Shown piece by piece: positions 2,525 to 27,920 of a stretch of DNA of 35,431 nucleotides. The notes under the pieces are model-generated. The model saw nothing but the letters and a program-made list of their open reading frames with translations, did no database searches and was not told the origin of the DNA. Origin of the DNA: a virus. Its lineage: Duplodnaviria; Heunggongvirae; Uroviricota; Caudoviricetes. The DNA is taken from the IMG/VR virus record IMGVR_UViG_3300018065_000012, one strand, 5' to 3'. How positions within the stretch are numbered: position 1 is the first letter of the stretch; the number at the start of each line of letters is the position of its first letter. Made by a program: the position numbers and the translations under genes.

Positions 2525-5500
2525 ATGCCTATCGCTGGAATCAAAGTCTTCTTTGTCGGCAAATCGTGGAACCTATCTTACGACATCAAGACCTCTAAGC
2601 ATATCGCAAATTTGATGTCTGATATTGCACAGTTCAAGCCTGATGTCATTGTCACATCCGAGTTTACTCCCGGTGCCTTAAATGTTGCTGATTTTGAAAT
2701 ACGGAAGCGGTGGATTGAAGTTCCTCCCAATTCAGATAATGCTTCTGTTGGAAGAGCAATCGAATCCTGCTATGCGTCGAACATTTGGGGAGAGCATAAA
2801 TTTAGCAAGCAGAATCCACTTGTTACGGTCTACACGGGAACATATAACACAGGTGACTTCCTACGGGACACTTTTCAATCATTACGGGAACAATCCTATA
2901 CGAATTGGGAATGGTCTGTTGTTGATGATGAAAGCACAGATGGCACTTGGGAACGGCTTATTGAAATAGCCAAAGAAGACCATCGAGTACATCCAGTAAG
3001 AATCAAGCATAGTGGCAAGATTGGAGCGGTGAAAGACGTTGCGACTCGTCTTGCAAATGGCGTCTATCTGATTGAACTTGACCATGATGATATGCTGACT
3101 GACAATTGTATTCAGGAAGTCAGGAAGGCATTTGAAGAAAACCCCGATGTTGGTTTTGTTTATTCCAATTGTGCGTCGTTCTTTCAGGATGGTTCGCCGC
3201 ATCAGTTCACAGATAATTTTTGGAAGCCGAGATACAGGGAAACAGAATACCGTGGAAAGAAGTATTTGGAGTGTAGGAATCCTGACATCTATGACCGCTT
3301 TGGAGAAAACTATCAACAGCAATTTGGCTGGTTCTTAACCGTGGGGCCGAACCATGTGAGGTCTTATCGAGCAAGTGTTTTGAAGGAGTTGGGCGGCTAC
3401 AATCAACACTTACCTGTAGCGGATGATTGGGATGTATATGCGAGATTCTTTTTGAATTCCAAATGCCTTCATCTTGACAAGATGCTTTATCTGTATCGCT
3501 TTTTGGATAGTTGGTCAAATACGACATTCACTCGCAACAAGTCGATTCAAGACCATTTGGCTTTGGGGCATCATAACTATCGGAAAGCGTTTATCGACTT
3601 CAACAACAAACGTTTACAATCTGAGGAACAGTCTGGTAATGAAACAGATTTCGTTACCAAAAAACGAGGTGTTTCCGCTGTGATTCTTGACTGGAATACA
3701 ATGGGAGAAACGTTGCTTTGTGTTGAATCCCTGAAAGCTTGCTATCCCGATGTTGAAGTTGTACTGGTTCAGAATGGCAAGCACTTTGATTGTCCGAAAG
3801 CTGACAAGGTGATTCAACTCGAAATGAATGTTGGTTTCTCGGCTGGTGTGAATCGTGGTGTAATGGAAACGAGTGGAGAATTGTTACTGCTTTTGAATAA
3901 TGATACTGTGGTTGAGAAAGGCTTGCTTGAGAAGCTTGAGAAAGAACTGGATAATCCTGATGTTGGTGTAGTTGGCCCTTACTCGAACGAAGCGAAGTAT
4001 CCACAAGGAAATTACGAATCTCATGCTGTTCCAAGTTTAACACAAGATTTGGATACGCTTTCTGGTTTCTGCATGTTAATGAGGAAAGACTTGTTTGAGT
4101 GTGTTGGTGGATTTGACCCACGCTTGACGACGTTTGAAGATGACGATTTTTGCCTTAAGGTGCGGCAACAGTTTAGGTTGAAATGCCGTGTGGTTGGTGG
4201 TACTTGGCTACATCATAGTGGGCATAGTTCATTTAAGACGAATGACCTTGACGTATTTGAAGTGATGAAAGAGAACAAGCAGAAGTACCGTGAAAAACGT
4301 CCTCATGTTCGAGTAATTGCTTTGACATATAATGAGAAGAGAGCGTTACCGGAATTCATTAACCAGTTGAGCAGCATTACAAATGACTTCTGCTTTCTTG
4401 ACAACGGCTCTACGGATGGAACAGTTGAATGGCTGAAGGAAAACGGAAGGAAAGTAGTAGTTCGAGAAGACGCAATTGAATCATATAGTCAACGACGAAA
4501 TATGGCGCTTGATATATTCCGTGACGATGCTGCTGAATGGATTGTGATGATTGACCCCGACGAACGTTTGGACAGCAACACAATCAATCATTTTGAGGAA
4601 TTGCTTCAGGCTCCGTATGACATCTATCTCTCTCCGTTGTGGTCAAAGAATTACGACAATACCCAAACAGAATGGGTAGCAAAGCCGTTCCTGTTCCGAA
4701 ACAAACCTGAGATACGTTGGGTGTTTCCTGTCCACGAGAAGCTGATTGGTTCTCATTCTCAGGCGTTAGTAGTCAACGCTCGGAATACGCACGTCTTGGA
4801 ATTACATTCGAAAGAGCGGCGTCAAGAGAATGCGAAAAAGTATGGCGACAAAGACGCACCATTGAATCATCCAGACGCACATGGTTTTCCCATTCTGAAT
4901 TACGAACATAGGGATGATGACAGAATCAAGAAGGTGTATTTGGGGCCACTCGTTTCGGTTGTAGTTCCGACGTATGACAGGAAGGAACTGCTTGCCAAGG
5001 CATTAGCATCTATTGAAAAACAGGATTATTTGGCAATTGATCCGGTAGTAGTTGGTGATAATTGTCCAACGCTTGAACCTTCTGAACGCCAATATAATTT
5101 GCCGATAAATCATGGCGCTGGCGGGGCTGTTCCAAGGAATTACGCAATCATGTTGGCGGCTGGTGATTGGATAGCTTACTTGGATGACGATAATGAATGG
5201 GAACCATACCATTTGTCGAGTCTGATGAGAATAGTTCAAGAAGCCAATGTTGGTTTTGCATTCTCGTCGATGTCGGTGAATGGTAAAGCGATGATTTTTG
5301 CAGAGCCGAAGTTTGGGAGGATTGATACATCATGTGTAGTACATCGAAAAAGCCTGATACGGGATTTCGGTTGGTGGAATGATAGAATCAAAGCTGGTTA
5401 CGCACATGATTGGGAATTTTTCAGTCGATGGGTTGTTGGTAAAGTTCCTTGGGCAGCGACAATGTTTCCTACAGTGATTTACAATGCAGAGACTTCAGGA

Positions 5501-5533
5501 CAAAAGGAATTTCTTGAGAGAATGACGCAATGA
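2525..5533 (+). CDS. Multidomain glycosyltransferase with four tandem GT2 (GT-A fold) domains.
   Basis: There are four repeats of the GT2 N-terminal signature with DxD-type motifs: VTVYTGTYNTGDFL...VVDDESTDGT...ELDHDD; VSAVILDWNT...LLNNDTVV; VRVIALTYNEKRAL...LDNGSTDGT...IDPDE; VSVVVPTYDRKELL...YLDDDNEW. Confidence 0.85.
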   Translation: MPIAGIKVFFVGKSWNLSYDIKTSKHIANLMSDIAQFKPDVIVTSEFTPGALNVADFEIRKRWIEVPPNSDNASVGRAIESCYASNIWGEHKFSKQNPLVTVYTGTYNTGDFLRDTFQSLREQSYTNWEWSVVDDESTDGTWERLIEIAKEDHRVHPVRIKHSGKIGAVKDVATRLANGVYLIELDHDDMLTDNCIQEVRKAFEENPDVGFVYSNCASFFQDGSPHQFTDNFWKPRYRETEYRGKKYLECRNPDIYDRFGENYQQQFGWFLTVGPNHVRSYRASVLKELGGYNQHLPVADDWDVYARFFLNSKCLHLDKMLYLYRFLDSWSNTTFTRNKSIQDHLALGHHNYRKAFIDFNNKRLQSEEQSGNETDFVTKKRGVSAVILDWNTMGETLLCVESLKACYPDVEVVLVQNGKHFDCPKADKVIQLEMNVGFSAGVNRGVMETSGELLLLLNNDTVVEKGLLEKLEKELDNPDVGVVGPYSNEAKYPQGNYESHAVPSLTQDLDTLSGFCMLMRKDLFECVGGFDPRLTTFEDDDFCLKVRQQFRLKCRVVGGTWLHHSGHSSFKTNDLDVFEVMKENKQKYREKRPHVRVIALTYNEKRALPEFINQLSSITNDFCFLDNGSTDGTVEWLKENGRKVVVREDAIESYSQRRNMALDIFRDDAAEWIVMIDPDERLDSNTINHFEELLQAPYDIYLSPLWSKNYDNTQTEWVAKPFLFRNKPEIRWVFPVHEKLIGSHSQALVVNARNTHVLELHSKERRQENAKKYGDKDAPLNHPDAHGFPILNYEHRDDDRIKKVYLGPLVSVVVPTYDRKELLAKALASIEKQDYLAIDPVVVGDNCPTLEPSERQYNLPINHGAGGAVPRNYAIMLAAGDWIAYLDDDNEWEPYHLSSLMRIVQEANVGFAFSSMSVNGKAMIFAEPKFGRIDTSCVVHRKSLIRDFGWWNDRIKAGYAHDWEFFSRWVVGKVPWAATMFPTVIYNAETSGQKEFLERMTQ

Positions 5534-6525
5534 GTAATGACTACGACGAATTCAACAGTTGGAAAGCACTTCTCTATGCTGATAAGTGTCGGGCGATTTT
5601 GGATGGTAATTTTCTTCCTCCCGTTATGATCCATGTTTATCCGACAAACAAGTGTAATGGCAGATGCAATTTTTGCATAATGAAAACAGAACAAGAATAC
5701 AAAACAGAGTTGGAGAAGTCTGTTTTTGAAAGGCTCGTCCAATCCGCAAATGATATGGGCGTAAAAGGTTTGCAAATAACGGGTGGCGGAGAACCACTTT
5801 TGTATTCGCACCTTCATCATATTCAAAAATTCAACGGGTTCAAATTGTTAGCAACCAATGGCAGTTTTCTTACGCCTGAGATCGCTTCGATGTTTGATAG
5901 GATACGTGTGAGTTTGAATGCGGGAAATGCGAAAACACATTCAGCAGTTATGGGGCTAAATAATTTCAGTGAAGTTATTGTCAACATGAGGCGTGTTAAA
6001 AAGCATTGTCCAAACGTTACGATGGGCATTGGGTTTGTTTTGAGTTTTGATAATTGGCATGAGGTTTTCGATGTTTGTGAAATTGCTGACAGTGTTGGCG
6101 CTGACTTTGTTCATATCAGACCGGCCTTTTTTGCGGATAAAAAGAGAGACAAAAAGGTAAGAGAAATAGTTGAGGCGGCTTATCACCTTTGCGAAGCGGC
6201 AAAGAAGCGGAACATCGTCAAGGTGTTCGCTATCTCAGAGAAGTTTGATGGCTATTGGACAGAACGCAAATACAAGAAGTGTTTGGCTTCCCCTTTGAAT
6301 GCGGTTGTAACGGCTACAGGAGAATTGGTGCCGTGCCTTGATGTTTTTATTCGATTTGGAGATTTGAATAAGAATACGTTTGAGGAAATTTGGGGAAGCG
6401 AAGAACACAAAAAAGCAATTGCAAAGATTGAGATTGAGAAATGCCCTCGTTGTGTGATGACTAAACCAAACGAAATTATAGAAAACGTTTTCATCAAGAA
6501 CAAAATCTTGGCGGAGCTGCTATGA
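5530..6525 (+). CDS. Radical SAM enzyme with a C-terminal Cys-rich (SPASM/twitch-like) region.
   Basis: CNGRCNFC (CxxxCxxC) lies near the N-terminus after YPTNKCN. A glycine-rich GGGEPLL SAM-binding motif is present. C-terminal cysteines include CLDV...EKCPRCVM. There is ATGA start-stop overlap with the GT gene. Confidence 0.8.
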   Translation: MSNDYDEFNSWKALLYADKCRAILDGNFLPPVMIHVYPTNKCNGRCNFCIMKTEQEYKTELEKSVFERLVQSANDMGVKGLQITGGGEPLLYSHLHHIQKFNGFKLLATNGSFLTPEIASMFDRIRVSLNAGNAKTHSAVMGLNNFSEVIVNMRRVKKHCPNVTMGIGFVLSFDNWHEVFDVCEIADSVGADFVHIRPAFFADKKRDKKVREIVEAAYHLCEAAKKRNIVKVFAISEKFDGYWTERKYKKCLASPLNAVVTATGELVPCLDVFIRFGDLNKNTFEEIWGSEEHKKAIAKIEIEKCPRCVMTKPNEIIENVFIKNKILAELL

Positions 6526-7415
6526 AAATTGGAGTGATGTTTTCAGGAGTTACAGGAAACAACGGTGCTGATTACGTTGCTGAATTTCTTGGCAATGCTG
6601 TGTTGCTTGAAGGGCATGAACTGACTTATATCGGTTCAATGGGTGGCGAACAAACGCAAGACGTTCCTTCTGGGCTGGATGTCGTGATCAATTCTTCCGG
6701 ATTTGGTTTGACTCCTGCGCTTGTTGAACGGTTTAAGAAACGATGCAAATTCTTTCTTTGGACGTTCAATGATGAAATTCATTTCTGGCAAAGTCGGATA
6801 GGTTCAATCACAGAATTGGTTGATAAGCATTTCTGTTATACAAAAACGCATTCCTATGGTCATCACGTTGAATATCTCCCGCTTGCAGCAGATCATTCAA
6901 TTTATTTTCCGATTGAAGGCTGTAAGAAACGTTATGACATTTCCATGATTGGGGCAGCACATCCTTGGAGAACTCAATTTGCTCAAGAGATTAGTCGTTT
7001 CTTTCCAAACTGTAAATTCAGTTTCAATATGAGTATGACTGACCGGCAAATAAATCTGCTTTACAATATGACGCGTGTAGTGATTGCGCCGATGCAAGAT
7101 GGCGATCAATACAACGAACAAGTAGTATTTGGATGTCCTTGTCGCACGTTTGATGTTCCTGCTGCAAGAGCGTTTCAATTACAAGCATACCGATCTGGTT
7201 TGCATGATGTTCACGACAGCGAAGAAATCATTGTGGGGACAACATTAAAGAGCACAAAGGATATTTTTGAAGTCATTTCAGAATGGATTGACAAAATTCG
7301 ATATTACTTAGATGAAGAAAAAACGCGGAAGAACTTGGCCGAAAGGATGTATGGCGAGATTACGCATAAACACCTCTATACCCATAGATTAAGTAGTATT
7401 TTGGAATTTGTGTGA
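6522..7415 (+). CDS. Putative GT-B-fold glycosyltransferase (CgeB-like or glycosyl transferase group 1-like).
   Basis: ATGA overlap with the rSAM gene. The C-terminal half resembles GT1/CgeB family (ISMIGAAHPWR...NLLYNMTRVVIAPMQ). No definitive motif is present. Confidence 0.45.
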   Translation: MKIGVMFSGVTGNNGADYVAEFLGNAVLLEGHELTYIGSMGGEQTQDVPSGLDVVINSSGFGLTPALVERFKKRCKFFLWTFNDEIHFWQSRIGSITELVDKHFCYTKTHSYGHHVEYLPLAADHSIYFPIEGCKKRYDISMIGAAHPWRTQFAQEISRFFPNCKFSFNMSMTDRQINLLYNMTRVVIAPMQDGDQYNEQVVFGCPCRTFDVPAARAFQLQAYRSGLHDVHDSEEIIVGTTLKSTKDIFEVISEWIDKIRYYLDEEKTRKNLAERMYGEITHKHLYTHRLSSILEFV

Positions 7416-7466
7416 GAATCATATTTTGATTTTTTTGAAATATTTTTGGAATTTTCCGTTCGCGAG

Positions 7467-7475
7467 TTGTATAAT
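7467..7475 (+). promoter_or_regulatory. Extended -10 promoter TTGTATAAT driving the tmRNA precursor.
   Basis: It is 20 nt upstream of the mature tmRNA 5' end GGGGGCG, consistent with a short 5' leader removed by RNase P. Confidence 0.5.
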
Positions 7476-7494
7476 ATATCGTTCTTTGGAAAAT

Positions 7495-7849
7495 GGGGGC
7501 GTCATGGTATCGACTGGCGCTGATTGTAGCACGGTTGCGTGCCGAGGTCGCCGGTTGGCCTCGTTAAAAAACCGGCAACGCCATTCACTTGGCAACAGCT
7601 ACAAAATGGCGGCGTGAGTCGCTCGTCAACTTGATCGACGCCGATGGGTCAATGTTTGACGTAAATGCTTTCGGTTGACAGCTGGCAAAGACCGCTGACG
7701 ACTCGCGGAAAGACGTGGGCCGCGTAAAGGGGTGGAATTGCCTTTTGAGGCTTGTCCAGTGGGCCAAGAATAAAAACCACGGAATACGCACGTAGAAGCC
7801 TGTTACAAAAGTGAACAGGACGCGGGTTCGATTCCCGCCGCCTCCACTA
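7495..7849 (+). ncRNA. ssrA: tmRNA (SsrA) with a tRNA-Ala-like domain and an internal tag reading frame.
   Basis: The 5' GGGGGCG pairs with the 3' CGCCUCC, giving a G3.U70 wobble, followed by discriminator A. The T-arm is GCGGG-UUCGAUU-CCCGC. The D-analogue GGUAUCGAC and the PK1 region GCGUGCCGAGG...GGUUGGCCUCGUUAAAAA align closely to E. coli SsrA. The tag ORF at 7591..7617 is GGC AAC AGC TAC AAA ATG GCG GCG TGA, giving (A)GNSYKMAA. Confidence 0.88.
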
Positions 7850-7886
7850 TTAAAAAGTTTCGGGGCAAGCTCAGTGCTTGTCCAAA

Positions 7887-7929
7887 GGAAGGGGAGCTTT
7901 CGGCCCCAAACTCCCCTTCCGGTTCTTTG
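7887..7929 (+). terminator. Rho-independent terminator downstream of the tmRNA.
   Basis: A perfect 10-bp inverted repeat GGAAGGGGAG...CTCCCCTTCC with a 14-nt loop, followed by GGTTCTTTG. Confidence 0.6.
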
Positions 7930-8199
7930 ACAAAAATTTCATGCACGCTTCAAGGCAGGGATACTTCAATAGCGATATATAAATTGGAGTGGAGAAATCC
8001 TGACAGCACCGGAAAGACGGGCAAAGGTGGTGACTTCCTTAAAGTCAATGGCAACCGTGAAAAGAGGCGGTGACAGGCGTGGATAGACACGCACGGTAGC
8101 TTACATAATAAAATGTAAATGCCGTAAAACAGACAAAATTTCCTTGCTTGACTTTTGGTGCATAAATTTTTGTCTTACGTCTATTGGGAGGACGGCAAT

Positions 8200-8406
8200 A
8201 TGTACAAGATTGAACTATTGCGATCCAAGAGCAAAAGAAAGAATGAAAATTTCTATTGGCGCTTGATTTCAAGAGCGAATGGAAATATTCTTTCGACTGC
8301 GGAACCTTATGCGCGTCGTCCTTGGACAGTGATCAAGAATCTTGCCGGTGCCTTCAAAAGAGGCAAATGCATTATTGTTGACCTGTCCCAAAAGAAGAAG
8401 AAATAA
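8200..8406 (+). CDS. DUF1508 / YegP-like small protein.
   Basis: A GGGAGG RBS precedes the ATG. The sequence FYWRLISRANGNILSTAEPYARRPWTVIKNLAGAF matches the YegP/DUF1508 repeat pattern (FRLKA.NGEII..SEGY). Confidence 0.6.
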   Translation: MYKIELLRSKSKRKNENFYWRLISRANGNILSTAEPYARRPWTVIKNLAGAFKRGKCIIVDLSQKKKK

Positions 8407-8783
8407 GGTTTCCCTTGTTGGCCGAGGGCCGATGGTTCCTCATCGTCCTCTCCTCACTCTACGGGTGGAGCTGTTTGCATTTGGTTGGCAAGGGAAAAGT
8501 TTTCTAACCGGCATTATCAGTATCATGGCGCTGCCGGTTATATTTGTTCTTTGAAAAAATTCCAACACGCTTCAGTTGAGAGATACTTCTACTATCGGTT
8601 CTAAGGTAGCTTAGGTCAAACCCTGTTTCGGCAGGGAGACACAGTGAGGACAAAACTGGTAACAGTGAGTCCGCGTCAAAGGCAAAGCTTATGAAACTCA
8701 TACGCGTCGTGGCGGTGGGTGAGGCTTGTACTGGCAACCACACACGAAAATACTTTCAACGTTTTTTGGTGTTGGTGCTTTTT

Positions 8784-8848
8784 CCGGGTGTGCTTTGGGT
8801 ATCCCAAACTTGATCTCCGCGAACAAGTGCCTACGCACCCGGTTTTTT
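8784..8848 (+). terminator. Stem-loop plus U-tract (CCGGGTGTG...CGCACCCGG TTTTTT), possibly the 3' end of an ncRNA or an attenuator.
   Basis: A 9-bp stem with one G.U pair and a ~41-nt loop, followed by six T residues, lying immediately before the RBS of the 8866 gene. Confidence 0.4.
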
Positions 8849-8865
8849 AATGGTAAGGAGACATT

Positions 8866-9639
8866 ATGAAAAATGTGATTGAGAAATTTGCGCGAATGGG
8901 TGCACGGCTCAAAATCAACCAAACAGATCGTCCCGTACGCTTTCGCGCCAACAACGAGTTCCGCATTGACGTTTTGCGCGATAAGAATGGCGAATTTTTC
9001 GACATTCAAACGCAAGACATCGACATGAAAGTGCTTGATGTACAATCCGCAGATCGCCATTTGCTTTTGCGCGTTGGCGATGAAAACTTTCTCTGTGGTC
9101 ACGATGAACGTCAATGGTTTGTCGCTGGCGTGAAAACAAATGCGCCCACAGTCAAGAGAGCAAAGGAAGCGCTGAAACCACTTGGAGTGCGCTCTTCCGA
9201 ACGCAAGAATCGCGTCAAAGGAAAAAACAGAATCAAGCGGCATAACAAAGGTTCTATCCGACAAGGAGAATGGTTCTTTGTCCCTGAGCCAGATGCCAGA
9301 TTTAATGCGAATTTGATTCTCAGAAAAGAACCTTTGATGCGTGGCAACCGTGGCGGTGGAAAACCCCATATTGCGGAGGAACTTGTTCGCATGGGTGGAA
9401 CGACAGTTTATGTTAATCCCCGCCATCGCAACGGTCTGATGGAAAAGGAATACAAAAAACTTTTGGCAGAAACGCCTTCTGCGAAAAGGTGGCGCTGGCA
9501 AGTGATGAAGCGCGACCCAAGGGTTTACGTTCGCGGTAAAATTCGCCATCCCGATCACAAGACAGTAAAGCTTCAAGGATGGTATCGGGTTGAAGTCAAT
9601 GACGAAATTTTCAGCGAGCGAGTAGCTTTTCTTGATTAA
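8866..9639 (+). CDS. Hypothetical basic protein (257 aa).
   Basis: A strong AAGGAGA RBS precedes a long clean ORF. I recognise no motif. Confidence 0.6.
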   Translation: MKNVIEKFARMGARLKINQTDRPVRFRANNEFRIDVLRDKNGEFFDIQTQDIDMKVLDVQSADRHLLLRVGDENFLCGHDERQWFVAGVKTNAPTVKRAKEALKPLGVRSSERKNRVKGKNRIKRHNKGSIRQGEWFFVPEPDARFNANLILRKEPLMRGNRGGGKPHIAEELVRMGGTTVYVNPRHRNGLMEKEYKKLLAETPSAKRWRWQVMKRDPRVYVRGKIRHPDHKTVKLQGWYRVEVNDEIFSERVAFLD

Positions 9640-9643
9640 GTTC

Positions 9644-9671
9644 TTGAATTTTGTTCTTTGAGTTGTATAAT
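9644..9671 (+). promoter_or_regulatory. Sigma70-like promoter: TTGAAT, 16-nt spacer, TGTATAAT.
   Basis: The -35 TTGAAT is at 9644..9649 and TTGTATAAT at 9663..9671. It lies in an intergenic gap 47 nt before the ATG at 9718. Confidence 0.55.
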
Positions 9672-9717
9672 AATAGAGAAGTGTGTGCTTTGTCCTCTGC
9701 TAACTTTGGAGGAAATT

Positions 9718-10764
9718 ATGAGCCATTTTACTGTTCTGGTTCGGTTTTCCGATGCGTTCAAAAATTCTCATGGTGGCGTCCAGCAAGCTATAAACGAAAT
9801 GCTTGCGCCCTATCAAGAAAACAATATGGAAGACTGTCCAAAGGAGTTTCTTGAATTTAATGATGTTGAAAAGGAGTATCGGAAAAAGTACAAGGAAGAA
9901 TCACAGGAATTAGTCCGAATGCCAGATGGTAAATTGATTTCAAAATATAACGACCGATTCAAAAAGCTCAAAGATGGAAGCAAGTATTCATATGATCGCA
10001 TTATTCCTGATGATTGCGAGTTAGTTAACGTGCCTCACAACCAACATTACGCGACGTTTGAAAAATTCATGGAAGATTACGGTGATTATGAAAAAGACGA
10101 AAGTACGGGGAAATACGGCTATTGGGAAAATCCAAATGCCAAATGGGACTGGTTTCAAATTGGTGGCCGTTGGCAAGGTTGTTTGCACGTTAAGAAAGGG
10201 GCGCGAAGCGCAAAGAACGGCGAACCAAGTCTTTTAATGAAGGACCATAAATTTGAAGACGACAAAGTGGATGCTGCTCAAAAATGCGACATCGACTTTG
10301 AAGGTTGGAAAGCTGATACAGACAAACAACTTGAGGAATGGTGGAAGAAATATCAACAACTTTTGAAAGGGACGTTAAAAGAAGACGACAACCCTTTTTA
10401 CGGGATGCATTACGACCTTTGCCAAATGGGGTTGAGAGAAACGCCTGCGGTCAACGACAAAGAAATTGAAGCCGCAAGAAAAAAGTCCCCAAAGGATCGT
10501 TCAAAATGGCCTGAAGCAGTTTGGATGACAAAAGAGATTACAAAAGCCGAACTTGAAATAAACTACCGCTGGCGGTTTGAGTTCAACACTTATGCCGCCT
10601 GTACTGAAAAAGAGGGATGGCTTGAAAAAGGAAAAATGGGCTGGTTTGGTTGTAGCACTGATAAAAGCGAAGACAGGGAGAAATGGGGCAAAAGCTTTTT
10701 CAACCGTTTCTTCTTGAACGCACCGGAGGATGAATGGTTTGCAGTCGTTGACTGCCACATTTGA
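9718..10764 (+). CDS. Hypothetical acidic, Trp-rich protein (348 aa).
   Basis: A GGAGG RBS precedes the ATG and a promoter lies directly upstream. The YGYWENPNAKWDWFQIGGRWQG segment is distinctive but unrecognised. Confidence 0.6.
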   Translation: MSHFTVLVRFSDAFKNSHGGVQQAINEMLAPYQENNMEDCPKEFLEFNDVEKEYRKKYKEESQELVRMPDGKLISKYNDRFKKLKDGSKYSYDRIIPDDCELVNVPHNQHYATFEKFMEDYGDYEKDESTGKYGYWENPNAKWDWFQIGGRWQGCLHVKKGARSAKNGEPSLLMKDHKFEDDKVDAAQKCDIDFEGWKADTDKQLEEWWKKYQQLLKGTLKEDDNPFYGMHYDLCQMGLRETPAVNDKEIEAARKKSPKDRSKWPEAVWMTKEITKAELEINYRWRFEFNTYAACTEKEGWLEKGKMGWFGCSTDKSEDREKWGKSFFNRFFLNAPEDEWFAVVDCHI

Positions 10765-10828
10765 CCTTTCTTAAATTTTGGTTCCGCTTTGTGTGAGAGC
10801 GGTTCGCTTCTGTAGAAAGGAGAGTATT

Positions 10829-12658
10829 ATGGGTAGAATGAAAAAGTTGGCGAAGAACAAGGCGAAGACGGCACGGCTTCCGTCGGAACAGACAAACGCA
10901 ACGGTAAACCGCGCAGGCGGTGTTTCGTTTGATATTACCGTTCCGGCTATCAAGCTGATGACCATGACGGGTGGAAGCTTTTTCATGGAACCGCGTTATT
11001 ACGATGCGGACAAGTGCGTGCCAAAGCGCGAAGCTGGCGGAAAGCTTGGCAAGCTTCAAGAGCGTTTGAAACTGGCAAAGAACAAGTCGTTGGAAGGCAG
11101 TAAGGCGTTGAAAGAATCCAACGTCAATGAGTTGGATGAATTGTCCCGTGAGGTCATGGCAACTGCTTGGGATGTTCTGAACAGCGATAATCCGAGCGAC
11201 TTGCTGAAGATTGCCCACTGGCTGCGGCGTGAAATGAACATCAGAATGACGCCGCAAGTGCTGTTGGTGCTTGCGTCACAACATCCAAACGGAAAGCCTT
11301 TTGTACGCGAGTACACGCCGAAGATAATTGCGCGTCCGGATGAGATCAAGACGGTCATCCTGATGCACAGGTTTTTCTTTGGCATGAAGAACTTGAAGAA
11401 CTGCTTGCGTTACGGTCTGTCTGATGCTATGGCAAAGATGGGCGAGCGCGGCCTGATCAAGTATGAAGGCAAGGATTTTCCAAGCTGGAAGGACGTCCTT
11501 TTCATGGTTGCTCACGCGAAGGATTATCCGCTGAGCAAGCCAGTTGCGGAATACTTCATGTTTGGCAAGGTCAGTGATGAAGCTCCGATTGCTTCCGCAA
11601 GAAAGCAGTTGGCTGGTTGCAAGAAGCTTGGCACAAAGGCGAAGAATCTGATTTCTACGTCTTTTGCAAACTGGGAAGTCGTTTTGTCTCAGTTTGGTCA
11701 GACTGCGGAAAGCAAGAAGGAAGTTTGGGAATATCTTATCAAGGAAAATTTGGTCGGCTACATGGCCATGATGAGAAACCTGCGGAACGTCCTTCAGGCA
11801 GGAGTTGGCGGCGATACGGTCAAGCGTATCCACGACAAGCTGTCTGATCCAGAGCAGGTAAAGCGTTCCAGACAACTTCCTTTCCGTTTTGCGATGGCCG
11901 CAAAGGTGCTTGGTGCTGACTATGGTATCACTGATCGTTGGTACTATGATCGGGACGTAAGCAATCAAAAGTTTGAGTGCAATGAAAAGCACCGCAGTAT
12001 TATTCAGGATGCTTTGGAAAACGCTGCGGACGAAGCGGTGATCAATGTGCCTGAACTTCCGGGCGTGACTGCTGTGTTTGCAGATAACAGCGGTTCAATG
12101 TCGCAGATGGTCAGCGAAAAGAGCAAGGTGTCGTGCGCTTTGGCTGCAAATATGCTTGGTGGTATCGTGGCGAAGCGTTCAGCAAATGCTCGCGTCTGTG
12201 CCTTTGGTACGGATGTAAAAGAAGTCAACTACACGAAGCGGACGCGTGTGCTGGAGTTTGTCGGTAAGCTTGCAAAGGCCGAAACAAATGGCTGCTCCAC
12301 TAACACGCATCGTTGCGCTCAGTGGTTGATGAAGAACGGCATTGCCGCTGACCGTGTGATCATCCTCAGCGACATGCAGTGCTGGGATTCCCGTTCGGCA
12401 GGTAGCAGACGGGGGTTGTGGGGTTATAGTGATCAAAGTTTTGCTGATGAATGGTTCAAGTACAAGAAGTCAAACAAGGACACTTGGCTTCACTGCGTCA
12501 ACTTGAATGGATATGGAGATAGCATGGTTGACGACAAGTCCGACAAAGTGAACCTTGTTGGCGCGTTCAGCGAAAAGATTATCAGCATGCTTCTGGTCAC
12601 TGAAGGCGTAATGACGGACGCAGTTCCAACTCTTGAACAACTTAGAGAGAAGTGGTAA
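10829..12658 (+). CDS. rsr: Ro60/Rsr-like ribonucleoprotein with a TROVE domain and a C-terminal vWA domain.
   Basis: The N-terminal TNATVNRAGGVSFDI...TGGSFFMEPRYY follows the Ro60 TROVE pattern (compare human NSQDGYVWQV...FGSEGGTYYI). The C-terminal vWA has a MIDAS motif VFADNSGSMS with downstream T/D residues (GCSTN, ILSDMQ). An AGGAGAG RBS is present. Confidence 0.62.
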   Translation: MGRMKKLAKNKAKTARLPSEQTNATVNRAGGVSFDITVPAIKLMTMTGGSFFMEPRYYDADKCVPKREAGGKLGKLQERLKLAKNKSLEGSKALKESNVNELDELSREVMATAWDVLNSDNPSDLLKIAHWLRREMNIRMTPQVLLVLASQHPNGKPFVREYTPKIIARPDEIKTVILMHRFFFGMKNLKNCLRYGLSDAMAKMGERGLIKYEGKDFPSWKDVLFMVAHAKDYPLSKPVAEYFMFGKVSDEAPIASARKQLAGCKKLGTKAKNLISTSFANWEVVLSQFGQTAESKKEVWEYLIKENLVGYMAMMRNLRNVLQAGVGGDTVKRIHDKLSDPEQVKRSRQLPFRFAMAAKVLGADYGITDRWYYDRDVSNQKFECNEKHRSIIQDALENAADEAVINVPELPGVTAVFADNSGSMSQMVSEKSKVSCALAANMLGGIVAKRSANARVCAFGTDVKEVNYTKRTRVLEFVGKLAKAETNGCSTNTHRCAQWLMKNGIAADRVIILSDMQCWDSRSAGSRRGLWGYSDQSFADEWFKYKKSNKDTWLHCVNLNGYGDSMVDDKSDKVNLVGAFSEKIISMLLVTEGVMTDAVPTLEQLREKW

Positions 12659-13611: not shown

Positions 13612-13872
13612 ATGAAAACTTGGACGGTCTATCTCGTGATGTGTTCAGACAATACATTGTATTGCGGTTGCACGACTAATTTGCCATTGCGCATCAGGGT
13701 GCATAATCTGAAAAAGGGTGCGAAATATACACGTGGAAGATGCCCTGTAAAAGTTGTTGCCTTTGTAGAAAACTTATCTCACGGTGACGCGCTAAGGCTC
13801 GAAAGAAAAATCAAGAGTTTGCATAAGGATGAAAAAGTTCCGTTTCTGAAACGCTATAAGCCGACGCGGTAA
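13612..13872 (+). CDS. GIY-YIG domain protein (UPF0213 / YhbQ-like).
   Basis: WTVYLVMCSDNTLYCGCTTNLPLRIRVHN...AKYTRGRCPVKVVAFVE...ALRLERKIK fits the GIY-YIG core (Y..Y.G.T.nl.rR...H, R, E). Confidence 0.6.
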   Translation: MKTWTVYLVMCSDNTLYCGCTTNLPLRIRVHNLKKGAKYTRGRCPVKVVAFVENLSHGDALRLERKIKSLHKDEKVPFLKRYKPTR

Positions 13873-13988
13873 CTTTGGAGGCTTTTGTAAATACCTACAT
13901 AAAAAGTAATTACAGCAAAACAAAATCTCAACATGCATAATTCTTTTATATTTACACGTTTTATAGACAGAGTGTATGGAATCAACTG

Positions 13989-14592: not shown

Positions 14593-15798
14593 ATGACGAT
14601 AAGGGCGGGTGATCTTCAATATTACTATCCAAATGCGCTTGGCTCCGCTGATGGACAATCCCTGACGGCGTTCAATGTTCAAGGTGGAAGTACGGCAAGA
14701 ACCATTAATAGCAACACGACAGAGGTAGATGATTACTGGAATGATGCTATCTTCGAAGGCTTGACAGGAACCAACGTTGAAGACCAATTGAATCACGTCC
14801 GCGATTATGCGCAAGCCAGCGGTGCAATTGAATTGGCAAATGAGCTTCCCGGCGTGCCTGTAATGCCCGCAACTTTCTATTTGATTCATATGGGAAAAGG
14901 AAGCGCATATCGTTCTGATCATCCAATTCCCGGTTTAAGCCCGACGGATACAGTTTCGCTTTCTGCTTCGTGTGCGATCAATTATGCATCCTTCACCAAT
15001 GGTGAAGGCGATGGTGAACTTGATTACACGAACACTGGCGACCTTCTACAGTGGAAGGCTCCCGGCGATTCTCTTGGCGCTGGCGTTACGATAACAGGCG
15101 ATGGAGAGGTAACTCTCTATTCTGCTGATGAATCAATGTATGCTCGCGTTCAAGTTGACTTTTCTGAATTGCCCGGTTCCGATCAACAAGATACGATCAC
15201 GCTTACACAACCCGTTGGCGAAGTTATTCCGAGCACAGAAGCGGTTCAATCTGAAACTGGAATCACCCGTTACGTTGCTGTTTTCTTCAAGAATATAAAC
15301 AGCGTGGATTCCATGAATGAACTTCACGCGTGGGTTGAACCACGCGTAAGCGCAAGCACCACGGCTGCTGGCGGGATAGGGACAACAGAAGGTACGCTGG
15401 CGGTGACAGATGCAAGTAGTATGCCTGCTCGTTCATTCTGGATTCTGAATGAAACGCTTGATGACTGTCGTTACGTAAAATATCGTTCGGGCAATACTTT
15501 GTATTGTTCTGCTGCTGGCGCGGGTTTGCGCGGAAAAACGGGGCAGACTTGGGTAACTACAAACGTAGTCAGTGTATGGGCTGATGTTGATTTGACAAAA
15601 CCTACGCTTGTTGCTGACGCGTTGCCTTCTGATTTGAGCATTTTGACGTATACAACACCTTTGACGTATGATGATGGTCTTGATTATGGAACGTTTTTAG
15701 CCGATGGGCTTGCGGCGATTGTAATGCGAGAAACGGTACTTGATACTGTTTATCCAATCGACAGTATCTTGACTCAGTTGAAACTTAAGTGGTGGTAG
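14593..15798 (+). CDS. Hypothetical virion structural protein (401 aa).
   Basis: A GGGAGAA RBS precedes a long ORF. It is adjacent to the fibre gene and rich in Gly/Thr/Ser. Confidence 0.5.
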   Translation: MTIRAGDLQYYYPNALGSADGQSLTAFNVQGGSTARTINSNTTEVDDYWNDAIFEGLTGTNVEDQLNHVRDYAQASGAIELANELPGVPVMPATFYLIHMGKGSAYRSDHPIPGLSPTDTVSLSASCAINYASFTNGEGDGELDYTNTGDLLQWKAPGDSLGAGVTITGDGEVTLYSADESMYARVQVDFSELPGSDQQDTITLTQPVGEVIPSTEAVQSETGITRYVAVFFKNINSVDSMNELHAWVEPRVSASTTAAGGIGTTEGTLAVTDASSMPARSFWILNETLDDCRYVKYRSGNTLYCSAAGAGLRGKTGQTWVTTNVVSVWADVDLTKPTLVADALPSDLSILTYTTPLTYDDGLDYGTFLADGLAAIVMRETVLDTVYPIDSILTQLKLKWW

Positions 15799-15799
15799 C

Positions 15800-16174
15800 A
15801 TGAAAATCAGTAAAAAGAAACCAAAAAATATGACGCCGGGTCAAATCAATAAGGAACTGGACAAGCTGAGCAAAGAATCGTCTAAATTGATGGACGACTT
15901 CATTGAGGCTGGTCGAGGTCGTGAGCGTCCTTCAGAGTATTTGAAGAAGTCGGACCCGCTGTCGTCGAAGGCACGAGCTTTATACGATAGGAAGACAGAT
16001 TTGCAGTTTGAAATCAAAAGAAGATATGGGCCAAACGCTCCTTCTCGTTTGCCCCTAAGACGAGGAAACGCAATGGACAATCGCAGAGTGGCTGCTGAGT
16101 TGGTGAAATTGGCGAAGACTCTGGTATCGAATCCAGAAGTTAAAGCGGCTGGTCGTGATTGTAAGTGTGAGTAA
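15800..16174 (+). CDS. Small basic protein with a C-terminal VAAELVKLAK motif.
   Basis: ATG follows 1 nt after the upstream stop. The C-terminus MDNRRVAAELVKLAKTLV matches the N-termini of the 23949 and 24379 products. Confidence 0.5.
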   Translation: MKISKKKPKNMTPGQINKELDKLSKESSKLMDDFIEAGRGRERPSEYLKKSDPLSSKARALYDRKTDLQFEIKRRYGPNAPSRLPLRRGNAMDNRRVAAELVKLAKTLVSNPEVKAAGRDCKCE

Positions 16175-19464: not shown

Positions 19465-19508
19465 AAACTGTGAACAACAACCGTCAACTTAAAAGTGAGG
19501 TTGAAAAG

Positions 19509-20264
19509 ATGAAATTGCTTCCTGAAAAAGTTTCCTATCGTGCCGTAATTGAATTGGTTGTAATTTTAGGGTTGAGTTTTGCCGTTGTTTTGATGTATTT
19601 TGGGAGCAGCAAAGGCGTCGAGACGTTCAAAAAGAAAATCATCAAAGACGAAAAATTCATGACAGAAGAGGGCACTTTGTATCTTGTTTACGAAGCAAAG
19701 GTTGAAAAGAAAACAAAAACATTTCAGGTAATGTCTCCTCTTCGGGTTATACAAGTTACTCAAGAAGTGCCAGTCAAAGGCGATGAAAGAATCAAAGTTG
19801 TTGAGCGTACTCAAGAAGTACCAGTCAAAGGCGACGAAAGAATCAAAGTTGTTGATCGTGTAATTGAAAAACCTGTTAAAACTAAGATTCCAAAAGTGAG
19901 AAGTTCTGATTTTGGTTTGAATCCTGATGGAAAGCCAGCAGATACAAAGGATGTTAAAAGTTCGCTAAAGCGCATTGAACAGATAAAAATTTTCACAGTT
20001 GGGATGCTCAACTCAAGAGAAGATGGAAAACAGCAGGCAAAGGAAATTTTAGCATTGAACGAGAAAATTGTATTTCTTGCGGAAACTTCTGAAAATTTAG
20101 GGGAATTCAGAAGGGGACTTCCGCCAGTGCTTCCAAAATTGTTCAAAATCTTGATCGAGGGCTACCGCGATTCGATGAACACAAATGATGGGGTGCTTGA
20201 GTTTGTCGAAGGGGTAATGGCCGCTTGCGGAAAAGCACTGGAATCAACTCCCGAATTACAATAG
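19509..20264 (+). CDS. Membrane-anchored protein with an N-terminal TM helix and an internal tandem repeat.
   Basis: A GTGAGG RBS is present. The hydrophobic segment is AVIELVVILGLSFAVVLMYF. QEVPVKGDERIKVV is duplicated. The ORF-track start at 19470 is too close to the promoter. Confidence 0.5.
   Translation: MKLLPEKVSYRAVIELVVILGLSFAVVLMYFGSSKGVETFKKKIIKDEKFMTEEGTLYLVYEAKVEKKTKTFQVMSPLRVIQVTQEVPVKGDERIKVVERTQEVPVKGDERIKVVDRVIEKPVKTKIPKVRSSDFGLNPDGKPADTKDVKSSLKRIEQIKIFTVGMLNSREDGKQQAKEILALNEKIVFLAETSENLGEFRRGLPPVLPKLFKILIEGYRDSMNTNDGVLEFVEGVMAACGKALESTPELQ
19758..19859 (+). repeat. Two tandem 51-bp repeats at about 94% identity.
   Basis: ACTCAAGAAGT(G/A)CCAGTCAAAGGCGA(T/C)GAAAGAATCAAAGTTGTTGA(G/T)CGT occurs twice. 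Confidence 0.7.
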
Positions 20265-23917: not shown

Positions 23918-23948
23918 CGTGTGTTTTGTATGATAAAGGGAAGAAATA

Positions 23949-24368
23949 ATGGACAAGCGCAAAGTAGCTGCTGAGTTGGTAAAGGTAGCCAGATTGCTAA
24001 CGGGTCAGGATAAGAAGGAAAAGGCTCAAGAACTGGCAACAGCACTCAAGCGTGTCAGGGGAATCAAAAACGGACAAGTTGATGATTTCTCAGGCAGCGA
24101 GTTTGTTCTGTTCGCAAATGGTGATGCTTCCAAATCTTCCAAAGGCGCACAGAAGAAGGCGTTTAATTGGGATGTTGCACCAAGGAAAGTGGCGGATGAA
24201 ATCAAGAAGCTGATTAAGAAGACAGACGGTGTGATGTTAAATTGGATGGATACGCCGAAGGCTGTTTATGAAGAGCAAGCAAAAGACCCACGGACGGGAA
24301 AGCGTGAGCGTTTGAATATTGGCTTTGACAATGACTATATCAAGTTCGAGGTCTACGTTTCAGGTTAA
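23949..24368 (+). CDS. Small protein with an N-terminal MDKRKVAAELVKVARLL motif.
   Basis: An RBS is present. The first 32 nt are identical to the start of the next gene. Confidence 0.5.
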   Translation: MDKRKVAAELVKVARLLTGQDKKEKAQELATALKRVRGIKNGQVDDFSGSEFVLFANGDASKSSKGAQKKAFNWDVAPRKVADEIKKLIKKTDGVMLNWMDTPKAVYEEQAKDPRTGKRERLNIGFDNDYIKFEVYVSG

Positions 24369-24378
24369 GGGGAATACA

Positions 24379-24726
24379 ATGGACAAGCGCAAAGTAGCTG
24401 CTGAGTTGGTGAAGATTGCTAAACGTCTGACTGCGGCAAGAATGAAAATAAAGCCAGAGGATTATAAGATACTGAAAAGTTTTCTTGATAAGGCAGTGAG
24501 AAAGATTGGTAAGGACAAGCTTGCAGAATATAAAGAGAAACTGAAAACAAACCCGAAAGTACGTGATGCGGATATGCGTTTTCGTTGGGACTTGCTTCAT
24601 GCTTCTCGTATTAAGATTGGCGATGGAAAAGGAATGAGGGGCGATGTTGAATTATACGGTTACATGAATGACAATCAGATCGATACGGCACTGAAAACAT
24701 ACATCAAATCAAAGAAATTGGATTGA
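24379..24726 (+). CDS. Small protein, tandem paralog at its N-terminus (MDKRKVAAELVKIAKRL).
   Basis: An AAGGGGAA RBS is present. The ATG at 24379 falls inside a longer ORF-track ORF. Confidence 0.5.
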   Translation: MDKRKVAAELVKIAKRLTAARMKIKPEDYKILKSFLDKAVRKIGKDKLAEYKEKLKTNPKVRDADMRFRWDLLHASRIKIGDGKGMRGDVELYGYMNDNQIDTALKTYIKSKKLD

Positions 24727-25826: not shown

Positions 25827-26162
25827 ATGGACGATAACAGCATCTCAAAAGAATTGGCAAATATCAGTCAAATTATTGATTCCGCACGCTTGCTTGAACT
25901 TGTTCGAAAAGAAGTTGGGACAGCGATGCAGGGCAAGCAGGCAATGGTTATTGGCGGAGAACTTTCTGATAAGCCAAATTATGATGTCGTTGTTATCCAT
26001 CACTCAGGCAAAGATGGCAATGGTGTGATCACACGTCGTTTGCGAGACGCTGTTGAAGATATTGAGATTACAAATCTTGACAACATGGTTGATAACATGC
26101 TTGGCATACGTTACAAACAGGAAAAGACGCCGGATGTATCTAAAACCAACAGCGCTGGTTGA
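25827..26162 (+). CDS. Hypothetical protein (111 aa).
   Basis: An AAGGGAA RBS is present, and the ATG is in frame with the 25536 ORF. Confidence 0.4.
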   Translation: MDDNSISKELANISQIIDSARLLELVRKEVGTAMQGKQAMVIGGELSDKPNYDVVVIHHSGKDGNGVITRRLRDAVEDIEITNLDNMVDNMLGIRYKQEKTPDVSKTNSAG

Positions 26163-27066
26163 TGGCGATAAAGTTGCTATCATTACGCCTTCTTCTCCGA
26201 TTACGTCGACTAAGGCAATTCAGTCTGCGTTGCCTGTCTTTGTAGAATGTGGCTTGGAGCCTGTTCTTGGTCCCAATTTGAGAAATTTACGTTCTGACGC
26301 TTGGAATTCTGCTCCTGTTGATCAACGTATTCATGAAATAGATTGGGCCTTTAGCGACAATACTATTTCTGCCGTATGTGTGAGTGAAGGCGGTTATTCT
26401 GCGATAGAACTGTTACCTTATATCCCTTACGACTTGATTCGCAAAACGCGTAAACCATTCATGGGGATGTCTGATATTACAGTTATCAACAATGCAATTT
26501 TGCGTTGTTCCGGGCTGGTAAACTTTTGCGGCCCAAATATTCGTATTCGCGAGAAAAAGCCCCTTGATGAGCAAAATCTTAAACACGCACTTATGCTACT
26601 CAAGCTTGATTCTGAATGGCACAATGATCCTTTTTCAGATTGTTCATTACCGCGTTGCGTCTGCGGTGGAATTGTTCGGGGAACTTCAATTGGCGGAAAC
26701 TTGACTTTGTTCACGGCGTTGATAGGAACGCCATTTTTGCCAGAATTGGAAGGCGCAATTTTATTTTTGGAAGATACTCAGGCAGGTGGTTACGAAGTTT
26801 CAGCTTGCTTGAATCAGCTTGAATTGGCTGGGGTTTTTGAAAAAGTTGGCGGCGTTGTTTTTGGAGAATTTGTCGAACGGCCAGAACGACAGGATTCAGA
26901 TGTTTCTGTTGAGGACGTAGTTGTTCGATTCTTTGAAGATAAATTGCCTTGCGTTTTCGGAATGAACTTCAGTCATGGCGAGACGGTTGCGAACGTTCCG
27001 CTTGGGGTGGAAACTTCTTTGGACGCTGAGAGCTGTATGGTTATGTTTGGAAATCCCTTTTCATGA
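26134..27066 (+). CDS. LD-carboxypeptidase (peptidase S66; LdcA / MccF-like).
   Basis: LVDGDKVAIITPSS is present. The Ser motif is GMSDITVINNAIL, the Glu motif is ILFLEDTQAGGYEV and the His motif is NFSHGETVANVPLG. The start is taken at the internal Met after an AGGAAAAG RBS. Confidence 0.72.
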   Translation: MYLKPTALVDGDKVAIITPSSPITSTKAIQSALPVFVECGLEPVLGPNLRNLRSDAWNSAPVDQRIHEIDWAFSDNTISAVCVSEGGYSAIELLPYIPYDLIRKTRKPFMGMSDITVINNAILRCSGLVNFCGPNIRIREKKPLDEQNLKHALMLLKLDSEWHNDPFSDCSLPRCVCGGIVRGTSIGGNLTLFTALIGTPFLPELEGAILFLEDTQAGGYEVSACLNQLELAGVFEKVGGVVFGEFVERPERQDSDVSVEDVVVRFFEDKLPCVFGMNFSHGETVANVPLGVETSLDAESCMVMFGNPFS

Positions 27067-27919: not shown

Positions 27920-27920
27920 T

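Follow-up and report, generated by a model that had tools for sequence, protein, structure and literature searches.

A phage-borne, probably functional transfer-messenger RNA gene upstream of a Ro60 ortholog in an uncultivated phage of about 340 kb

Phage-encoded transfer-messenger RNAs (tmRNAs) have been counted in 402 of 18,146 phage genomes (~2.3%), and host protein recycling early in infection has been proposed as their use (Buchholz et al. 2022, PMC9004378). Huge phages carrying both tmRNA and SmpB have been described, with sustaining translation and sensing of the host state put forward as functions (Al-Shayeb et al. 2020, PMC7162821), and phage G also has a tmRNA (PMC12484599). In the field of RNA repair and surveillance, phage Ro60 genes with adjacent Y RNAs have been documented (Chen et al. 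2014, PMC4201824), and an RNA repair operon, rsr-yrlBA-rtcBA, is known (PMC7790460). Jumbo phages are described as repairing host-cut RNA with tRNAs and RNA ligases, to which a subset adds a TROVE protein and its tRNA-like partner, in a survey that nowhere mentions tmRNA (Iyer et al. 2021, PMC7824862). Here we describe a tmRNA (SsrA) gene at positions 7495-7846 (+ strand) of a 35,431-nt stretch of viral DNA from the IMG/VR record IMGVR_UViG_3300018065_000012 (Caudoviricetes), hereafter the window. The gene encodes a genuine one-piece tmRNA that probably works as other tmRNAs do; it is carried by a phage and lies 3 kb upstream of a Ro60 ortholog. An earlier reading made from the letters of the window (the sequence-only reading) had proposed the gene and described phage tmRNAs as rare. 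They do occur in a minority of phages, but they are already well documented, including in huge phages, and the present gene is one more case on a known list.

A search of the window with the Rfam tmRNA covariance model, RF00023, gave a match at 7495-7849 on the + strand that spanned the whole model (1-374 of 374) and scored 125.2 bits (E 9e-49), with the gathering score of the family at 47 bits. RF00023 was the sole Rfam family over threshold within the 35 kb, and nhmmer with models of the tmRNA 5' and 3' ends gave E values of 3e-16 and 1e-18 on the same gene. The full-length match bears out the proposal of a complete tmRNA, and the Infernal check that had been suggested for it ended well above the gathering score. 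The mature body, from G1 to the discriminator A, measures 352 nt (7495-7846). The span first given for the gene, 7467-7929, corresponds to the entire transcription unit, the mature RNA being 7495-7846 plus an added CCA.

The structural elements of the RNA were read from the sequence. The acceptor stem comprises 7 bp, in which the 5' strand GGGGGCG (7495-7501) pairs with CGCCUCC (7839-7845) and includes G3·U; the T-arm GCGGG-UUCGAUU-CCCGC (7822-7838) is the only T-arm motif in the whole window, and the discriminator A stands at 7846. The tRNA-like domain had been called textbook, which holds for these three features but not for the 3' end, where CUA stands and CCA is not encoded. The 5' strand of helix 2 (7512-7542) pairs with 7788-7820 and is marked by double-sided pair changes among three phage tmRNAs. 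Pseudoknot 1 (PK1; 7543-7576), located immediately 5' of the tag, had likewise been recognised, and both of its stems were found: CGAGG/CCUCG (7543-7547 with 7559-7563) and GCCGGUU/AACCGGC (7550-7556 with 7570-7576). It is followed by the H5 hairpin GGCGGC-GUGA-GUCGCU (7608-7623; 6 bp), which holds the tag stop codon in its loop, the canonical arrangement in tmRNAs. The stem region of PK2 (7624-7661; CGUCAA/UUGACG and UUGAUC/GGGUCAA) was placed by the Rfam alignment and by direct complementarity. A permuted, two-piece tmRNA was considered and rejected: it reached only 30 bits, under the gathering score, and merely reused the T-arm.

The tag frame occupies 7591-7617 on the + strand (GGC AAC AGC TAC AAA ATG GCG GCG TGA) and, in the register given by the Rfam alignment, reads (A)GNSYKMAA*, the same tag that had been proposed. 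The frame has no start codon, resumes on GGC, ends in a hydrophobic residue followed by Ala-Ala and has its stop in the H5 loop. The sequence-only reading had regarded the MAA ending, in place of the usual LAA, as an oddity. It is not unusual: among ~214 bacterial tmRNAs sampled (ARAGORN run on fetched tmRNAs), 16 have tags that end in MAA. Most of these are from Planctomycetota, where they include AESNLAMAA, ANPQFSMAA and ADSNLQMAA; ANADYRMAA is another sampled tag of this kind. The same sample contains tags of eight encoded residues (ADNYALAA, GKNYALAA) and a Gly-initial tag (GNNNYALAA), and a second huge-phage tmRNA met in the search has the tag AEPVLMAA. Both the C-terminal MAA and the eight-residue length are within the natural bacterial range.

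The tmRNA was found at 100% identity on six metagenome contigs or assemblies, one of them of 338,319 bp (ENA ERZ27256780, k141_931436). Other phage tmRNAs were recovered from three further contigs: L250, a relative from the same series of samples (118 bits; ~75% identical to the window tmRNA); L284, another relative (111 bits); and L007, a 63%-GC viral contig (129 bits) that has only the tmRNA and Ro60 in common with the window. The aligned tag of L250 is GGC GAA AAC ACT TAC AAA ATG GCT GCT TGA (GENTYKMAA*), which differs from the window tag by one in-frame 3-nt codon indel, an S to T replacement and two synonymous Ala changes (GCG/GCT), and ends at the same UGA. Since the indel keeps the frame, the Ala changes are synonymous and the stop is retained, this is the pattern of a translated frame. 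The helices showed a corresponding record of change. The acceptor stem is unchanged in the window, L250 and L007 tmRNAs and stem 1 of PK1 is invariant, whereas stem 2 covaries (GCCGG/CCGGC vs GUCAG/CUGAC in L007). In H5 of L250 (GGCUGC-UUGA-GCAGCC) a G-C pair has become U-A, a compensatory change, and 9 of the 23 pairs of helix 2 are altered on both sides among the three phage tmRNAs. We then scored 46 base pairs (helix 2, both PK1 stems, H5 and the T-arm) in the window, L250 and L007. Pairing was kept in 87.6% of cells, compared with 38-50% when the 3' partners were slid; 13 of the 46 pairs had changed on both sides, compared with 2-6 in the slid controls, and none of 500 shuffles reached 13. 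Because 13 pairs covary and the tag frame is kept in L250, these comparisons show the tmRNA gene to be selected for its RNA structure as well as for its coded message.

Searches beyond the metagenome contigs returned little similarity. No close relatives were found among GenBank phages with megablast, and blastn against the same phages matched only ~70 nt of the tRNA-like end, in mycobacteriophages. None of the bacterial tmRNAs sampled matched the window gene beyond the conserved ends. Matches to the conserved 3' block were found on over 119 metagenome contigs and over 120 genome contigs from many phyla; the block is uninformative on the donor and was dropped as a lineage marker.

Several observations weigh against a functional tmRNA. 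The genomic 3' end reads ...CCUCC-A-CUA (discriminator and following triplet, 7846-7849), so that CCA is not encoded. PK3 and PK4 show several non-canonical pairs with respect to the Rfam model (alignment accuracy 0.64), and across PK2-PK4, where the PK2 stems are visible in the window, the alignment to the relatives is too gapped for covariation. The covariation result comes from three sequences only, with a structure taken from the window sequence. The 35-kb window yielded no SmpB, CCA-adding enzyme or tRNA gene, so that function would rest either on factors of the host or on genes in other parts of the genome. ARAGORN, which had been proposed as a check, did not return the gene: with default settings it called no tmRNA in the window or in the identical source contigs, and with relaxed thresholds it placed both tRNA-like halves at exactly 7495-7847 but assigned a spurious tag, 'GKDR*', and the pseudogene label 'tmRNAp'. 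Single edits of the sequence (CUA to CCA, the resume codon, K/M to A/L, the stop codon) restored no detection. The miss stems from the overall scoring of the tag and resume region and from no single feature. For the L250 tmRNA (7736-8104), ARAGORN reported the tag VRVETTLGFLHALV, which is implausible, the conserved frame being GENTYKMAA.

These points could also be read as signs of a decaying, host-derived tmRNA relic that is out of use: the gene is labelled 'tmRNAp' and its tag is not placed, CCA has been lost in the window (CUA) and in L250 (UUU), PK3 and PK4 are weak against the model, and the close relative L283 has no tmRNA at this position. We consider a relic very unlikely. Compensatory changes keep the helices between phages that are ~75% identical in the gene, and in the tag the length class, the stop codon and the C-terminal YKMAA have survived an in-frame indel and synonymous changes. 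The gene also has its own promoter and a terminator-like end, and it is identical in six independent assemblies. An encoded CCA is wanting in many bacterial tmRNA and tRNA genes, and its absence does not exclude membership of the tmRNA family, because CCA can be added post-transcriptionally. The triplet following the discriminator varies among the phage genes; L250 has A-UUU, and L007 and L284 encode CCA.

The tmRNA gene is preceded by a sigma-70-type promoter (7446-7475, +; 10/12 matches in the promoter scan), composed of a -35-like TTGGAA (7446-7451), an 18-nt spacer and TATAAT (7470-7475) within the motif TTGTATAAT (7467-7475). The window holds four copies of TTGTATAAT, all of them on the + strand (2488, 7467, 9663 and 19456), compared with 0.27 copies expected, and none of 100 shuffles had as many. 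Three copies stand 5' of open reading frames (ORFs) and one 5' of the tmRNA, and the copies have in common a T-rich upstream sequence and -35-like TTGRAW hexamers, in agreement with the proposal that the tmRNA and neighbouring phage genes use one type of promoter. The -10 element ends 19 nt 5' of G1 (7476-7494), a distance that would leave a leader of ~12 nt if transcription starts near 7482. On the 3' side, the trailer (7863-7929, +) was folded with ViennaRNA into two hairpins, 7863-7883 and 7887-7920, with a combined energy of -32.5 kcal/mol, followed by the U-rich tail GGUUCUUUG. A terminator of its own had been claimed for the gene. The two strong hairpins and the tail agree with this, but a simple consensus terminator scan made no + strand call at the trailer, which is therefore termed terminator-like only. 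A second promoter-like motif in the window, GCATAAWTTTTTTATATT, is distinct from TTGTATAAT; it stands at 13935, 20322 and 29919, just 5' of ORFs, with a similar sequence at 8160, and may belong to another temporal class of transcription.

The setting of the gene supports phage carriage. All substantial ORFs in the 35 kb run on the + strand, and GC skew is even throughout. Among the encoded products are two Phage_tube_2 proteins, a Laminin_G_3 'virion structural protein', endonuclease VII, a GIY-YIG homing endonuclease, topoisomerase IB, a nucleoside deoxyribosyltransferase and a large glycosyltransferase/radical-SAM operon. On the 338,319-bp contig the tmRNA is flanked on both sides by same-strand genes, and related genes were found on several IMG/VR contigs of 330-340 kb. 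The search for related phage loci with synteny that had been suggested was also productive, yielding L250, L283 and L284. Orthologous tmRNAs are carried by L250 and L284 at other genomic positions.

Since tmRNA genes are common integration sites, a host chromosomal ssrA with a phage-like element integrated at the gene, as its attachment (att) site, has to be weighed, and loci of that kind were indeed met in the search. They were rejected as relatives: L008 has a truncated att-type tmRNA and its locus starts inside the tmRNA, and L209/L041 have a bacterial-type tmRNA (tag ANADYAL..) with foreign-looking genes after it. In the window, by contrast, the tmRNA is full-length, stands between phage-type genes of the same strand and has a promoter motif in common with them. 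No integrase was found among the sizeable window ORFs, and no att-like duplicate of the tmRNA 3' end in the window, where a 14-nt chance match was the only hit. The same sequence is present on the 338-kb contig and on five others, relatives carry the tmRNA elsewhere, and L283 has the same flanks without a tmRNA. Given the phage flanks, the lack of integrase and 3'-end duplicate in the window and the lack of a sampled bacterial tmRNA matching beyond the conserved ends, integration at a host ssrA is essentially excluded. The results support a phage-borne gene in an uncultivated phage of ~340 kb, as the sequence-only reading had held on the strength of the same-strand phage genes and the missing integrase and att repeat.

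For this phage-borne tmRNA we infer expression, processing, charging and tagging along the course known for tmRNAs. Host RNA polymerase would transcribe the gene as its own unit from the sigma-70-type promoter, RNase P would remove the ~12-nt leader, and the 3' trailer would be removed as well. As the gene encodes CUA, a host CCA-adding enzyme is proposed to build or repair the CCA end, after which host alanyl-tRNA synthetase (AlaRS) would charge the RNA through G3·U. SmpB and EF-Tu, supplied by the host or from elsewhere in the genome (neither protein, nor AlaRS, is encoded in the window), would bring it to ribosomes stalled on broken or stop-less mRNAs. Translation would then resume on GGC, add (A)GNSYKMAA and end at the UGA in the H5 loop, freeing the ribosome, and the C-terminal MAA would mark the product for ClpXP-type proteolysis. 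The phage may benefit by keeping ribosomes available while mRNAs and tRNAs are cut by phage takeover or by host RNA-targeting defences.

Downstream of the tmRNA lie ~1 kb of mostly non-coding DNA, a 257-aa ORF, a 348-aa ORF and the Ro60 ortholog. The sequence-only reading missed the Ro60 gene and the gene of the Rtc/Ro60-associated family, which are the most informative context of the tmRNA. The Ro60 ortholog (10829-12658, +; 609 aa, with the start taken from gene calls on the source contigs) has TROVE and Ro60 vWA domains, scoring 4e-24 with Pfam TROVE, 3e-9 with vWA_Ro60 and 1e-43 with phrog_850 ('RNA-binding protein'). Between tmRNA and Ro60, neither YrlA nor any other Rfam family was detected at E values up to 5, and no T-arm motif was present. 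The tRNA scan, Rfam and the T-arm motif likewise gave no YrlA-type tRNA-like element in the window apart from the tmRNA, although Y RNAs of another type may be present, and RtcB, RtcA, RtcR and RNA ligase were not found among the window ORFs.

The non-coding DNA contains two units headed by a 24-nt motif, CACGCTTCA-N6-RGATACTTC, which were delimited by motif search. Unit 1 (7944-8199, +; motif at 7944-7967) has conserved hairpins at ~8045-8095 and is conserved with L250, including a compensatory change. It is followed by a 68-aa ORF (8200-8406, +; from gene calls on the source contigs) with a weak DUF1508 match (Pfam E 0.003, below cutoff). Unit 2 (8566-8865, +; motif at 8566-8589) is 85% identical to L250 over 65 nt; RNAalifold pairs its 5' motif with a 3' segment, with a few compensatory pairs, and the single-sequence minimum free energy z-score is only -0.8. 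Besides the two window copies, the motif occurs at 8472, 8832 and 9298 in L250, at 9808 in L283 and at 3979 in L284. In these four related phages it was found only in the non-coding stretch from the tmRNA to the 257-aa or Ro60 genes, with fewer than 0.1 copies expected per locus. The copies have A/T-rich sequence upstream and TTGGTG with a T-run ~200-230 nt downstream. On visual inspection the motif does not match a sigma-54 promoter. It could be a private promoter, or it could mark the 5' ends of ~220-nt RNAs, which would be candidate Ro60 partners.

The 257-aa ORF (8866-9639, +) encodes a protein of an uncharacterised family, which was characterised through homolog searches and gene contexts. 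The family has 4151 detectable homologs, with members ~50-55% identical in Planctomycetota chromosomes, and the invariant motifs LCGHDERHWF, RQGEWFF and IRHPDHKT. AlphaFold2 predicts the structure with confidence (pLDDT 90.8), and no fold match was found in the PDB. Several contexts of the family involve RNA repair genes. In Fuerstiella marisgermanici the homolog is directly 5' of a TROVE gene, from which two T-arm elements separate it; on L249, a bacterial contig of 116 kb, it comes after RtcB, and RtcR lies upstream in divergent orientation; and on L209/L041 it comes directly after the bacterial ssrA. Homologs were also present in 29 IMG/VR contigs, most of 100-527 kb, where they lie in islands rich in tRNAs (as many as 46 within 20 kb). 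At five distinct loci of these 29 (L260/261, L266, L276, L280 and L281), Rfam confirmed a same-strand tmRNA no more than 10 kb away, and the survey of viral contigs found three with RtcB and two with Ro60. On L276, a 416-kb IMG/VR contig, the tmRNA match (80 bits) borders, with a slight overlap, on a group I intron match (91 bits) within 15130-15741, which suggests an intron-interrupted tmRNA gene.

The 348-aa protein (9718-10764, +) belongs to phrog_10079 (PHROG E 9e-43) and has its own TTGTATAAT promoter at 9663. With 1114 homologs it is a widespread phage protein of replication modules, and it has no fold match. A role as an RNA-repair component was rejected, given a Paenibacillus homolog in a prophage replication module and the lack of a fold match, and the protein is treated as unrelated cargo.

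Loci with close homologs of the window Ro60 were compared. The tmRNA lies 1-3 kb 5' of Ro60 in three divergent contigs that have little else in common, namely the window, L007 and L284. In L284 the order is tmRNA, a 107-aa ORF, a 90-nt tRNA-Met(CAT)-like element and Ro60; in L007 it is tmRNA, tRNA-Met, two T-arm elements and Ro60. L285, a 345-kb contig, has a CCA-adding-type nucleotidyltransferase, a 2H-family protein, an 89-nt tRNA-Met(CAT)-like element, Ro60 and ClpP, with no tmRNA within 10 kb. Its region 4388-12484 is another RNA-repair-like island in a huge phage: Ro60 stands directly before ClpP, and the nucleotidyltransferase, which has an HD domain, and the 2H-family protein are within 6 kb. 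L283, which has the same GT2, radical-SAM and GT1 genes as the window, passes from GT1 to Ro60 in 290 nt (9709-10001), and no tmRNA, 257-aa or 348-aa gene was found between the two. Because L283 goes from GT1 to Ro60 without this block, window positions 7440-10765, which hold the tmRNA, the non-coding units and the 68-aa, 257-aa and 348-aa genes, look like an inserted cassette relative to L283. In L250 the tmRNA and the 257-aa gene are beside an array of 10 tRNAs, upstream of a different gene block, and no Ro60 is present within 10 kb. Together these contigs suggest that the tmRNA travels with the 257-aa gene and is often, not always, beside Ro60. In the annotated Ro60 phages Cane17 and CcrColossus, no tmRNA is annotated within 6 kb of Ro60.

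This linkage raises the possibility that the tmRNA-shaped RNA serves mainly as a Ro60 partner or client (either a tether of the Y-RNA kind or a substrate for quality control), or else as a decoy that draws off host factors, and is not chiefly a ribosome rescuer. The proximity of the two genes in three divergent contigs, and the fact that L007 and the window have only these two genes in common, speak for such a role. So do the tRNA-like modules of Ro60-binding bacterial Y RNAs (PMC4201824) and the tRNA-like elements beside Ro60 in L007, L284 and L285; the window has no T-arm element besides the tmRNA. We nevertheless judge it unlikely, if somewhat less so than a relic. The tag ORF is under protein-level constraint and has a canonical degron end, features that an RNA serving Ro60 alone could do without; in L250, which has no Ro60 within 10 kb, an orthologous tmRNA is retained; Cane17 and CcrColossus lack an annotated tmRNA beside Ro60; and the window offers other candidate non-coding units for Ro60. 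A tmRNA that rescues ribosomes remains our preferred reading, and it may cooperate with Ro60.

As the tmRNA shares a movable block with an Rtc/Ro60-associated protein, and Ro60 follows downstream, the arrangement suggests that it is part of a phage RNA damage-control island. A more specific idea, which we offer tentatively and hold to be possible rather than probable, is a movable RNA damage-response cassette directed against RNA-cutting host defences and made up of the tmRNA, two or three motif-headed units, the 257-aa protein and Ro60. In such a cassette the tmRNA would free ribosomes on cleaved messages, Ro60 and its partners would clear or repair damaged structured RNAs, and Ro60 might act directly on the tmRNA or on the motif-headed RNAs.

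The remaining window features lie around the block. Directly 5' of the tmRNA, the operon 2525-7415 encodes a 1002-aa protein with three GT2 domains, a radical SAM/SPASM enzyme and a GT1-like glycosyltransferase, and it is conserved in the relatives L250 and L283. The GIY-YIG homing-endonuclease ORF (13612-13872) is present in the window and in L003 and absent at that place in the near-identical L001, L002 and L004, a polymorphism typical of a mobile homing endonuclease. Three paralogous 60-nt segments (16064-16123, 23940-23999 and 24370-24429), which encode roughly MDKRKVAAELVK..., are situated at or near ORF starts, and a 51-nt tandem duplication, 94% identical, was found at 19757-19858 inside the ORF 19470-20264. 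A topoisomerase IB catalytic core of eukaryotic/poxvirus type (27750-29069; Pfam 1e-22) lies near an LD-carboxypeptidase (26053-27066).

Compared with the bacterial one-piece tmRNA (SsrA, RF00023), the window gene has the same tRNA-like domain with G3·U, T-arm and discriminator A, the long helix 2, PK1, a resume codon of the Gly/Ala type, a tag ending in a hydrophobic residue and Ala-Ala, the stop in the H5 loop and a full-length match to the model. It differs in being carried by a phage, in its unencoded CCA, in going unrecognised by ARAGORN and in having no sampled bacterial match beyond the conserved ends; its tag is at the short end of the range (eight encoded residues) and has Lys at position -4. 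The host may be a member of the Planctomycetota. The 257-aa homologs, the MAA-type tags and the sole close Ro60 homolog with a taxon name, from Candidatus Brocadiia, point in this direction, although they are suggestive only. Very few phages of Planctomycetota are known.

The tmRNAs of large and huge phages resemble the window gene in that a complete tmRNA resides in a genome of more than 200 kb with other translation- or RNA-related genes, and relatives of the window also place it beside tRNA arrays, as in L250 with its 10 tRNAs. The window gene differs as a separate promoter-to-terminator unit with zero tRNAs in 35 kb. ARAGORN is the standard annotation route for phage tmRNAs and is also used inside Pharokka. 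The published surveys of phage tmRNAs (PMC7162821, PMC9004378, PMC12484599) used this program, which misses the window gene and mis-tags its L250 ortholog; they do not mention a link to Ro60 or to the Rtc/Ro60-associated gene. Phage tmRNAs are therefore probably more frequent than published values such as 2.3% indicate, and phage tag catalogues built on ARAGORN alone likely contain errors and omissions. Scans with covariance models would correct these counts and tag lists.

With Ro60-Y RNA and Rtc modules, the window has in common a TROVE and vWA Ro60 gene with non-coding sequence upstream, and homologs of its 257-aa protein that occur beside TROVE (Fuerstiella) and after RtcB under RtcR (L249). 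It differs in the lack of a detectable YrlA-type element and of RtcB, RtcA and RtcR, and in having a tmRNA, which is not part of the described rsr-yrlBA-rtcBA operon. The resemblance to jumbo-phage RNA repair lies in the relatives of the 257-aa protein found in huge-phage tRNA islands, sometimes with RtcB; the difference is that no RNA ligase was found in the window. The 257-aa family, which numbers over 4,000 members and whose confidently predicted structure has no fold match, is a candidate new component of RNA repair.

What is new in this comparison, and only in part established, is the failure of ARAGORN on this lineage, the recurring neighbourhood of tmRNA, 257-aa gene and Ro60 with its cassette-like mobility, and the possible Planctomycetota host. 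The reason why phages carry tmRNAs has so far been largely speculative. The neighbourhood favours a link to RNA damage and gives a testable idea: because the tmRNA adjoins Ro60 in three divergent contigs and also the Rtc/Ro60-associated 257-aa family, it suggests that during infection ribosome rescue is brought into use alongside RNA repair or surveillance.

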